From NCBI RefSeq assembly GCF_053078305.1, contig NZ_CP166879.1: DNA of 64,000 nucleotides; one strand, written 5' to 3'. Numbering within the stretch: the stretch's first letter is position 1; every line of letters begins with the position of its first letter. Shown piece after piece: positions 58,401-61,400 of the stretch. Position numbers: made by a program.

Positions 58401-61400
58401 GACCGGGGAAGTCAGAGAAATGCCGGTGACCACATATTCAGATGGCACCAGAACCATGACACCGGATGTGGGCTGGTCATATAACCCCGGTTCGGCGGCG
58501 TTCGGCACAGACCAGGCGCTGATCCGTAAACTGATCGAGGTGAAAAGCCCGGCGTTACGGGAAATGGTGGTTCAGGAGATGAACAACAGCCCGGAGCGGC
58601 AGCTGGCGTTCCGCATCTGGGCAAAAAACATCATGAAAACCCGGCGAGGCGGTAACGATATCCGCACGCTGGGCTTTATGACCGAAAGTATTGCGCAGGC
58701 GGTGGAAAGCCGGACGGGAACGCCACCGGCCCGCCTGCTGGCGATGAGCGGTAAAAATGTGCTCCATGCGGACAGCGTGAAACATCAGAATGACGGTATC
58801 GCCCTGACGCCGGAGGATTTCGCGCAGTTTCCCGCCATGCTGGCTGCCCCCGATGCCGTGCTGTGGGATCATGTCCATCAGAACTTGCTTTACATCACTG
58901 AAACCCGTGACGGAACGGCAAAGATTGCCGTCAATGCGCCTTATAGTGTGAAACGTCAGCCGGATAAGCTGGATGTGGTGATTAATGCCTATAGAGTGAG
59001 CAGGAATACTCTGATTGATGCTGTTCAGGGAGGTAAGATGGAGATCCTCGAAGGGAAATTGTAAGTCGGTGGTGGGGGTCGAACCCACATAAACATCCTT
59101 CGGGTGAAGATATCCCTCAGGTGCCGCTTTACCAGTTAAGAGTACACCGACCTGCTTTTATTTTAACCAGGTAGTTTCACGGAGGCAATATGTCATCCAT
59201 TGATGCCGCTGTCGTTGTTGACGTTACGCGTCTCCAGCGGGTCTTTGCCCGGCTTCAGTTTGTGGGTGGTGGAAAAGACCTGGCCCGCAGTGTGGCGGCG
59301 AGTCTTCTGTCATCGTCAGAAATGGCGTTTGAACAGGAAAAAGAGCCGGACGGCGAACGCTGGCATGACTGGTCAGATCCTTACCGCAAGTGGCGTACCC
59401 GTAAGGGATACATGCCCGGCAAAATCCTGACGCTGAACGGCGATCTGGCCCGACGCCTGACCACGGATTATGGAGATACCTGGGCGCTGATTGGATCAAA
59501 TGAGCCTTATGCGGCCATTCATCAGTGGGGTGGCCTGCCAGGTATGCCGCCTGGACCGGCGGCCATTGGTGCACGTCCGTATATGGGCTTTGATCAGGTG
59601 GCAGAGCAGGAGATCATGGACGAAATCAGAAAACGCTTTAAAAAGGCCACAGAAACGCCTTAATTGTTTAAGGTATGCAAATGCATTACCTTACCCCCTT
59701 CAGGCGCGTGTCGTGATTTTCTAACCTGTATTTAACGGGCTTTAAAATCTGCGTGAAGCGCCTTTGCATTTTTCCCTGAAAATACTTCCTGAAATCCCGC
59801 AAAACCCGCCCTGAAAATTCCCGGCTTATGCTGCCGGTATGAAGACAGAAAATCACCCAAAAGACGCAAATCGCCCCTCTGGTTTAGCCGTGCTTTCAGC
59901 TTCGCTGACTGCATCCGGCGACGGATGGTGTCAGTTACTGCCAGCAGGCAGGGTAAAGGCCCGTGACGGTCGCCCGGAAAAACCGGCTGAAGGCTGGCTG
60001 ATTAACGAATCCGCCTGCAACCGGATGAAAGCCGGGCTTTCCGCCCTGAATCAGCCGTTACTGATTGATTATGACCATCACTCCATGAATGCGCGGAAAA
60101 ACGGATTCAAGGCCATTGCCGCAGGTTGGGTTAAGCCGGAAAACATCGAATGGCGTGAGGGTCAGGGGATTTTCATTAAACCTGAATGGACGCCGCAGGC
60201 CCAAAAACATATTGATGACCGTGAATATGCCTATCTGTCTGCGTATATGCATTATTTCGCTGACACCGGGGAACCCTACCTGTTGCGCATGGCTTCCCTG
60301 ACGAATGATCCAGGTATTACGGGTATGAACCCTGTCGCAGCACTCAGTGCTGACGATCTCTATGTAGTTTCCCCTTCTCAGGAGCAACACCCCATGAATG
60401 AGCAATTACGCCAGTTGCTGACGGCGCTCGGTCTGACCGTGGCTGATGGTGACGAATTTACGCCGGAGCTGGGCACGGCAGCGCTGTCTGCCCTCACCGG
60501 GATCAAAACCCGTGCGGATGCACACGACAACCTGAAAACACAGGTCGCCTGTCTGTCGGCAGAGCTGGAAACTGCAAAAGGCACACCGGCTGGCGGCAGT
60601 ATTGATCTGACGAAATACGTGCCCGTTGAAACGTATAACGCCCTGCGTACCGAATACGTTGCGCTGTCGGCGCAGCACGGCAGCACCACGCTGGAGCAGT
60701 TGCTGGACAAGGCCGAGTCCGAAGGACGCATCTTCAAAAGTGAACGCGGCTATCTGGAACAACTGGGCGGGCAGATTGGCGTGGCGGCACTTTCTGCACA
60801 GCTTGACGCCCGACAGCCGGTTGCGGCCCTGACCGGTCTTCAGACCGACACCGTGACCGTGCCGGATAAAAAGACTGCCACCGCTGTGCTGTCGGCTGAA
60901 GATATCGCGGCCGCCAAACTGCTGGGTAAAACCGAAGCCGAGTTCCTGAAAATGAAAGAGGAAATGCAATAATGCCTACCCCGATTACACCGGCGATGAT
61001 CACCGCCCTGATGACGGGCTACCGTTCTGATTTTCAGGCCGGGATGTCCATGGCCCCGTCGCAGTACAAAAAAATTGCGATGACCGTGCCCTCCACATCG
61101 AAATCCAACACCTACGGCTGGCTGGGGCATGCGCCTCATTTTCGTGAGTGGATTGGTTCTCGTGTGATCCAGAAAATGAAAGCGCACGGTTATTCCATTG
61201 TAAACAAGACCTGGGAAGATACCGTCCCTGTTAATCGTGATGATTTTGAGGACGATAATCTCGGTATTTACTCGCCTTTATTTCAGGAGCTTGGTCGTGC
61301 CGCTGCTGTTCAGCCGGATGAGCTTGTATTTGCTGCTCTGCGTGATGGTCTGAAAAGTGCGTGTTACGACGGTCAGAACTTCTTTGATACCGAACACCCC

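Follow-up and report, generated by a model that had tools for sequence, protein, structure and literature searches.

Work on bacteriophage transfer RNAs (tRNAs) today centers on decoding and on the replacement of host tRNAs that have been cleaved by defense systems. Non-decoding mimics of tRNA are also described, and some bacterial Y RNAs of the YrlA type are phage encoded and are substrates of tRNA enzymes. The accessory phage genes described as morons are typically protein coding. In the laboratory, engineered tRNA scaffolds that carry a hairpin in place of the anticodon stem-loop are reported to be recognized by Escherichia coli cellular factors and to be produced there as recombinant RNAs (PMC3753655). 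Here, we describe a tRNA-shaped RNA element encoded on the minus strand of a Mu-like prophage, in the spacer that separates its head genes F and G, within a stretch of 64,000 nucleotides (nt) from contig NZ_CP166879.1 (NCBI RefSeq assembly GCF_053078305.1). We refer to this whole stretch as the window, and all positions given without a locus name are window positions. The element is a conserved RNA without decoding ability, with the body of a tRNA, a predicted promoter of its own, and a hairpin where the anticodon arm would be. It appears to represent an undescribed family of structured RNAs and not a pseudogene: a full-text literature search, with incomplete coverage of subscription journals, found no description of the element, and Rfam 15 contains no family for it. 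We hold with high confidence that a functional gene encoding a tRNA-shaped RNA lies here.

The core of the RNA is about 91 nt long, counted between the outermost nucleotides of a closing helix of 9 base pairs (bp), and spans 59153 to 59063 on the minus strand. It takes up the 125-nt spacer that separates the F stop codon (59062 to 59064) from the start of G (59190). It is supported by a match to the Rfam tRNA family, by a covariance model of our own, and by covariation. Read from the minus strand, the segment folds into a tRNA-like four-way junction. An initial annotation of the window, made from the sequence alone, had pointed to a 7-bp stem and a T arm at this site and had proposed a tRNA-like structure on the minus strand. 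The stem is present in the sequence (plus-strand GTCGGTG at 59065 to 59071 and CACCGAC at 59145 to 59151), as is the T arm, GTGGG-TTCGACC-CCCAC, on the minus strand from 59088 down to 59072. The covariance-model scan that the annotation had recommended gave a match to RF00005 at 59151 to 59064 on the minus strand (30.0 bits, E = 1.9e-4), a small margin above that family's gathering score of 29. This match and the conservation of the element in related prophages bear out the proposed structure.

The RF00005 alignment skips 26 nt where the 11-nt core of the anticodon stem-loop is expected. With default settings, ARAGORN called no tRNA and no transfer-messenger RNA (tmRNA) in the window; with intron and lowered-threshold settings, its only call was a spurious tRNA-SeC(UCA) in one variant, L003. 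In many E. coli genomes, the Prokaryotic Genome Annotation Pipeline (PGAP) places the label "tRNA-OTHER" at the same spot on the opposite strand. Our own covariance model, R1, scores the window element at 89 bits (E = 3e-24). RNA folding, which had also been suggested as a check, gave unremarkable energies (z = -0.29 for the minus strand, -0.55 for the plus strand). Neither z-score is significant, so folding energy is uninformative as a discriminator.

The acceptor stem, D arm, T arm, and elbow nucleotides of a tRNA core are all conserved in the element, and the stems covary. The closing helix consists of a 7-bp acceptor stem extended by the pairs -1:73 and -2:74. Its 5' strand comprises A(-2), G(-1), and G1 to G7 (AGGUCGGUG; 59145 to 59153, minus strand), and its 3' strand comprises CACCGAC followed by U73 and U74 (59063 to 59071, minus strand), the last two being the complement of the final two bases of the F stop codon. 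The 3' strand is supported by sequence and covariation, and all 9 pairs of the helix show double compensatory changes. Of the 39 informative sequences, every one has the -1:73 pair (G-C in 19, A-U in 12, G-U in 4, U-A in 2, C-G in 1, and U-G in 1), and 34 have the -2:74 pair (A-U in 21, C-G in 8, and others). No variant encodes a CCA end.

Inside this helix, a connector (UAC) and the D arm (UCUU / AACUGGUA / AAGC) occupy 59126 to 59144 on the minus strand and are nearly invariant. The initial annotation had held that the D arm does not fold. It does, as (U)CUU / AACUGGUA / AAG(C), with canonical A14, G18, and G19; A14, A15, G18, G19, and A21 are the D-arm nucleotides that are kept, and the D stem covaries in variants L212 and L214 (CG to AU and UA to AU). 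The 3-nt length of the UAC connector is an unusual signature of the family. The variable loop, UUAU (59089 to 59092, minus strand; equivalent to positions 45 to 48), follows a conserved (G/U)UAU motif, and by analogy with tRNA structure a U48-A15 Levitt pair can form. In the T arm, GUGGG / UUCGACC / CCCAC (59072 to 59088, minus strand), 99% of alignment cells are paired, four of the five pairs show double changes, and the T-loop sequence UUCRA is invariant across the family. The near-invariant elbow and core include U8, A14, A15, G18, G19, U54, U55, C56, A58, the G53:C61 pair, and the 4-nt variable loop (G/U)UAU.

Where a tRNA has its anticodon arm, the element has an extended hairpin of 32 nt (59093 to 59124, minus strand), a segment that the initial annotation had also taken not to fold. 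In the window its stem of 9 bp contains tandem G-A/A-G pairs and one bulged A, and its loop has 9 nt. In all 40 variants, the segment between the D and T arms is a single hairpin of 6 to 12 bp. The loops have mostly 3 to 4 nt and are for the most part UNCG or GNRA tetraloops (UUCG, UCCG, and GCAA), with others of 3, 6, 9, or 10 nt, including AUU and U6; none of the 40 variants has a 7-nt anticodon loop, and no triplet is conserved. Among close relatives, the body is 88 to 100% identical, while arms of different types vary in length and share only 35 to 68% identity. In those relatives, the neighboring 3' end of F is 70 to 88% identical to the window. An arm that is swapped rapidly and yet is always a capped helix is the opposite of decay. 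Because the arm is hypervariable and always hairpinned, both decoding and a conserved single-stranded "guide" are ruled out.

Two ideas about the variable arm were examined and set aside. The best match within the prophage for a base-pairing target, 14 of 15 nt in gene I (60892 to 60906), has an E value of 0.33, which is chance level. In this match, the distal part of the arm, GATATCTTCACCCGA, corresponds to the minus strand inside gene I, such that the RNA could pair with the late mRNA there; it was found for the window's own arm sequence only. A likeness of the arm to CRISPR repeat hairpins was weak as judged by eye and was dropped.

Covariation indicates that the body is under strong purifying selection for its structure. 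When 40 distinct homologues, those of related prophages among them, were aligned to the model, 95.5% of pair cells were standard and 16 of the 18 pairs showed compensatory double changes. None of 500 shuffled controls reached the observed value on any of five measures, and sliding the pairing partners out of register lowered the paired cells to 40 to 46%. An independent alignment made with MAFFT from 14 variants gave the same result, with 91.4% of pair cells standard and 10 of 20 pairs changed on both sides, and RNAalifold independently recovered the 9-bp closing helix and the T stem. In the 40-sequence set, G-U pairs outnumber A-C pairs 46 to 3 when the minus strand is read (21 to 2 in a smaller set). 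This excess identifies the minus strand, antisense to the late operon, as the strand that is transcribed and under selection. These data establish a conserved structured RNA encoded by the minus strand.

Upstream of the RNA, a sigma-70-type promoter is predicted at 59160 to 59188 on the minus strand, with the -35 box TTGCCT at 59183 to 59188, a 17-nt spacer, and the -10 box TAAAAT at 59160 to 59165; a promoter scan scores this arrangement at 9 of 12 matches. The window's -10 box ends 6 nt upstream of the helix. Across the 19 distinct variants that are independently promoted, a TAnnnT hexamer ends 5 to 9 nt upstream of the model start, or 6 to 11 nt upstream of the first base of the helix, and further variants follow the same pattern as judged by eye. 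The hexamer takes the form TAAAAT, TATAAT, TATACT, TATGCT, or others and is kept even where the surrounding sequence is unrelated. From this spacing, transcription is predicted to start at the helix or a few nucleotides from it (59153 ± 3), leaving almost no leader. A clear intrinsic terminator follows the element by six nucleotides in L212 and L214, which therefore have a complete promoter-RNA-terminator unit; elsewhere the RNA is presumably trimmed at its 3' end as far as the helix. At 59181 to 59188, the minus-strand -35 box TTGCCT shares its base pairs with the Shine-Dalgarno sequence GGAGG of G, so that promoter strength and the initiation of G translation are evolutionarily coupled.

The element is widespread among relatives of this prophage. 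The F-G region was matched in 228 of 5,426 complete E. coli genomes (about 4%), at 80 to 99.5% identity and including enterohemorrhagic E. coli O157:H7. Pattern scans of IMG/VR, of GTDB genomes, and of JGI metagenomes yielded further variants, one of them in Citrobacter braakii, and protein-guided retrieval assembled 80 diverse Mu-like loci. With a covariance model trained on 14 variants, the element was detected in 22 of these 80 loci, always just upstream of G and on the strand opposite to it, and the element can be traced down to about 41% G-protein identity to the window. An unfiltered cmsearch for divergent copies in the remaining Mu-like loci with long spacers returned nothing significant. 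The 40 distinct versions come from E. coli, Citrobacter, and distant Mu-like phages, and nearly all lie antisense in the F-G spacer. Apart from a single solitary copy in a chromosome, all occurrences in the sequences examined are in Mu-like transposable phages or in a related mini-element.

The flanking genes in the window are a Mu F-type head morphogenesis gene of 441 amino acids (57739 to 59064, plus strand), identified from the list of open reading frames and the PGAP annotation of a 99.5%-identical locus, and a Mu G-type virion morphogenesis gene of 157 amino acids (59190 to 59663, plus strand), identified from the same list and PGAP and 54.6% identical to Mu G. Phage Mu lacks the element, and its F and G genes overlap by 4 nt. 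Spacers that hold the element measure 111 to 173 nt, or 367 nt where there are three copies, whereas those without it measure about -13 to 17 nt in relatives whose G match reaches the G start. This contrast indicates that the element is a module inserted at one junction and not part of an ancestral gene order.

Three kinds of locus depart from the single F-G copy. In a distant Mu-like phage (L213; IMG/VR UViG_2568526488_000001, positions 822 to 1136, minus strand), three tandem copies with two -10 boxes, and hence two predicted promoters, share the 367-nt F-G spacer. ARAGORN calls the copy nearest F a tRNA-Lys(UUU), although its position 33 is C and not U; this copy may be a relic of an ancestral, true phage tRNA, and a tRNA origin of the element is plausible. 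A second setting is a small Mu-like transposable element (L281:1-14830, L285:1-9180, and L290:1-12280) that carries the same RNA gene (61 bits) along with genes for a repressor, MuA-like and MuB-like proteins, a Mor-like activator, and a gpT-like major head protein. By tblastn, no portal, F, or G gene was found in the stretches examined, and these mini-elements may be satellites of Mu-like phages. Their RNA gene is convergent to the late genes; on its own strand, a variable cargo gene follows after 36 to 200 nt and encodes the PADLOC candidate defense protein PDC-S31 in L281 and L285 and an unrelated open reading frame of 164 amino acids in L290. The solitary copy (69 bits) is in a gammaproteobacterial metagenome-assembled genome (L046:165-3330; JAHKAA010000052.1), on the strand opposite to a type I-E-like CRISPR array with about 48 repeats and about 150 to 200 nt past the last repeat that can be recognized. 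No F or G remnants and no Mu genes were found around it. An 8-bp inverted repeat, AAACAATG-N4-CATTGTTT, precedes the -10 box of this copy at about the place where a -35 box would be expected.

Unrelated tRNA-like genes with a long insertion or extended helix at the anticodon arm were also seen in phage-like metagenome contigs (L081, L143, and L161; L093, L101, L103, L113, and L119; and L148, L155, and L185), where ARAGORN calls are odd or undetermined. Genes of the L081/L143/L161 type have a ribosome-binding site and an ATG within about 20 nt downstream. Extension of the anticodon arm in tRNA-like genes may be a wider phage phenomenon.

What might such an RNA do? The explanation that we favor, to which we assign about an even chance, is a stand-alone, moron-like gene for a small, stable, non-decoding tRNA-shaped RNA, carried antisense between F and G by a large clade of Mu-like phages. 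The host sigma-70 RNA polymerase would transcribe the element, probably also in the lysogen, and the RNA would accumulate through a tRNA body that makes the cell treat it as a tRNA, as happens with engineered tRNA scaffolds. It would act in trans through recognition of its L shape, and not by base pairing or decoding, by occupying a protein or ribonucleoprotein that recognizes the body of tRNA. Candidate targets would be a tRNA-directed nuclease, nucleotidyltransferase, or toxin belonging to a defense system, or an enzyme of tRNA processing. Binding would be possible for such a target, but cleavage or use of the RNA would not, since it has neither an anticodon loop nor a free NCCA end. Recognition of shape is the most likely mode, since acceptor and arm sequences vary, only the helices and the elbow are constrained, and copies multiply. 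The presence of the RNA gene outside the F-G context, in a mini-element beside a candidate defense gene, is consistent with this explanation, as are, in terms of dosage, the three tandem copies of L213. The decoy mechanism itself we put forward tentatively, as a possibility that falls well short of even.

Several points weigh against this explanation. The promoter and the transcript ends are predictions, and variants of the window type have no terminator after the element, which abuts the F stop codon. The closing helix is only 6 bp long in L212 and L214. No binding partner is encoded beside the element, whose neighbors F and G are structural genes. A stoichiometric decoy must compete with about 10^5 cellular tRNAs, and most known tRNA-targeting defense nucleases recognize the anticodon, which this RNA does not have. 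Finally, the paired positions 73 and 74 are unlike those of a normal substrate of RNase P or of the CCA-adding enzyme, so that tRNA-like processing is not certain. Stated in its most specific form, the proposal is that the RNA would serve as an uncleavable, unchargeable phage decoy of the tRNA body that neutralizes a tRNA-directed immune effector or toxin, or interferes with a tRNA-processing enzyme. In this form we regard it as unlikely, if worth stating. The target would then be, for example, an anticodon nuclease or an acceptor-end-modifying enzyme, and the arm, hypervariable yet always hairpinned, would record an arms race with it.

Other accounts assign the conserved structure a different role. 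It is unlikely, in our estimate, that the element acts in cis or as an antisense RNA, such that what matters is the convergent promoter and a transcript complementary to the late mRNA between F and G, working either through transcriptional interference or by having RNase III cleave late transcripts that leak through in the lysogen, with the tRNA-like shape giving only stability or a defined 3' end. The element indeed lies antisense to the late genes throughout, the ribosome-binding site of G is overlapped by its -35 box, and most variants lack a terminator, so transcription would continue antisense into F. L212 and L214, however, terminate right after the element, so that antisense RNA into F is not needed; moreover, selection keeps the tRNA tertiary nucleotides as well as the pairing, whereas antisense complementarity needs no fold, and the same RNA is kept in contexts other than F-G. 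Slightly less probable again is that the element is the 5' module or landmark of a slot for cargo (moron) genes, whether as a promoter with a processable or stabilizing 5' structure or as a recombination hotspot, with the F-G copies as empty slots. Its position 36 to 200 nt upstream of same-strand variable cargo in L281, L285, and L290 fits this idea, and other extended-arm tRNA-likes in metagenomic phage contigs directly precede a ribosome-binding site and an ATG. Against it, dozens of F-G copies are free of cargo and yet under strong structural selection across deep divergence, and a recombination site would be expected to preserve DNA sequence rather than RNA pairing that includes G-U wobbles.

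A chargeable, non-ribosomal tRNA-like RNA, which after 3' trimming, CCA addition, and aminoacylation would donate or sequester an amino acid or an enzyme, seems to us quite improbable. It would call for a synthetase that ignores the anticodon, such as histidyl-tRNA synthetase acting through G-1:C73. The -1:73 pair is a hallmark of tRNA-His and is G-C in about half of the variants, many of the canonical tRNAs that share the element's D arm in collection scans are tRNA-His, and CCA-less phage tRNAs can mature in E. coli via RNase BN and the CCA-adding enzyme. Nonetheless, -1:73 is A-U in 12 of 40 variants and U-A, C-G, or a wobble pair in others, so that the G-1:C73 identity is not conserved; the covariation of -2:74 argues for a double-stranded end, and the acceptor sequence varies so freely that no identity set is conserved. 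A tRNA-His identity based on G-1:C73 had been tried as a candidate and was rejected, the pair being always formed but A-U in many variants. We judge it equally improbable that the site functions in the plus-strand late mRNA as an intrinsic terminator, processing site, or stability element between F and G. The initial annotation had raised a terminator or processing signal, and in the window the plus-strand stem is followed by CTGCTTTTATTTT, with ctgcttttatttt at 59152 to 59164. This T-run, however, is the complement of the A-rich -10 box TAAAAT and is missing where the box is TATACT or TATAAT, a terminator scan of the window found none at the plus-strand site, and the loops make tRNA sense on the minus strand only. 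The 46:3 ratio points the same way, in that such G-U pairs become A-C mismatches in a plus-strand RNA.

Neutral decay fares worse still. That the element is a functionless tRNA pseudogene or att-site remnant is very unlikely, even though it is weakly tRNA-like, negative with ARAGORN, and without an anticodon, and even though a decayed captured tRNA had been among the first suggestions for this site. Compensation at 16 of 18 pairs, with changes in all three helices, the absence of any equal among 500 shuffles, and an arm rebuilt as a stable hairpin with tetraloops all contradict decay, as do the conserved promoter and the retention of the element down to about 41% G-protein identity. The body is 88 to 100% identical in close relatives, against 70 to 88% identity to the window for the 3' end of F, and the MAFFT-based covariation argues against an alignment artifact. 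Least probable of all is a genuine decoding tRNA, of a suppressor, Sec-like, or frameshift kind with an unusual anticodon arm. It would draw on the lowered-threshold tRNA-SeC(UCA) call in L003 and the tRNA-Lys(UUU) call for one L213 copy, but there is no conserved triplet or 7-nt loop, the gene lacks a CCA, and its positions 73 and 74 are base paired; for the enterobacterial variants, this reading is contradicted. The plus-strand terminator, the pseudogene, and the true tRNA are thus all three contradicted by the data.

These findings show that phages have evolved tRNA-shaped RNAs that are unable to decode, and the element is in effect a natural counterpart of the laboratory tRNA scaffold. A mimic without an anticodon points to a use of the tRNA shape different from decoding or tRNA replacement. 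If its target proves to be an immune effector or a core tRNA enzyme, the element would represent a new mechanism of phage-host conflict as well as a useful tool. If the decoy reading is true, it would be a new kind of RNA-based counter-defense, or of protection conferred by a prophage, present in about 4% of complete E. coli genomes. For annotation, pipelines should drop the label "tRNA-OTHER" at this site, and the covariance model built here, or a similar one, allows the element to be annotated as a family of its own.

The surrounding prophage begins near 40.9 kb (window positions 40897 to 64000) and extends past the end of the window. A near-identical prophage in strain Z887 interrupts mhpD, and the window's left flank differs from it, as expected for a transposable phage; alignment gaps between the two at about 41.07 to 42.28, 49.37 to 50.04, and 60.0 to 60.4 kb mark variable segments. 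Outside the prophage, Rfam matches at gathering scores comprise two JUMPstart elements (14208 to 14246 and 39795 to 39833, both minus strand), naRNA4/CssrE (20811 to 20881, plus strand), and an algC RNA motif (25270 to 25319, minus strand). For the element itself, no Rfam family other than tRNA was matched, and no YrlA, when the region was searched at E values up to 10 and the whole window at gathering scores.

How, then, does the element relate to known systems? With canonical tRNA (RF00005) it shares the acceptor stem, the D arm with G18 and G19, the 4-nt variable loop, the T arm with UUCRA, and U8 and A14. Unlike a tRNA, it has a capped hairpin of 6 to 12 bp for an anticodon loop, a closing helix that the pairing of positions 73 and 74 extends to 9 bp, no encoded CCA, a connector of 3 nt (UAC) instead of 2, and a predicted start at the helix with almost no leader. 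The tRNA scaffold of Ponchon and Dardel (PMC3753655) likewise keeps the acceptor, T, and D arms and replaces the anticodon stem-loop with a hairpin, but it is an artificial carrier for a payload, whereas the element is a natural phage gene whose hairpin has no conserved payload.

The same holds, with other differences, for phage morons and for natural RNAs that imitate tRNA. Like a moron, the element is an extra, putatively independent unit on the opposite strand between genes that are adjacent in relatives, and related phages lack it at the same junction, as seen in the overlapping genes of Mu and the short spacers of relatives without the element; unlike the described morons, it encodes a structured RNA. 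Of the transcription signals, a promoter motif is seen in all variants checked and a clear terminator in L212 and L214 only. YrlA and other bacterial Y RNAs are also non-coding, non-decoding mimics of the tRNA D and T arms and elbow. In YrlA the 5' and 3' ends form a Ro-binding helix and the gene lies beside rsr, whereas the ends of the element form an acceptor-like helix and its neighbors are Mu F and G, with no rsr nearby. The tRNA-like domain of tmRNA mimics the acceptor and T arm without an anticodon, but the mRNA-like domain, the pseudoknots, the chargeable CCA end with G3-U70, and the need for SmpB that mark tmRNA are not seen in the element of about 91 nt. RNAs of the mascRNA/MALAT1 type and viral 3' tRNA-like structures similarly exploit recognition of the tRNA shape, by RNase P or Z or by the CCA-adding enzyme, for a non-decoding purpose; these are eukaryotic or belong to RNA viruses and are cut from, or terminate, a longer RNA, whereas the element is a phage gene with its own predicted promoter. 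Taken together, the closest system overall is tRNA, and the closest in architecture is the engineered tRNA scaffold. Closest in concept are YrlA, the tRNA-like domain of tmRNA, and mimics of the mascRNA type, from all of which the element differs in its topology, its context, and its ends.

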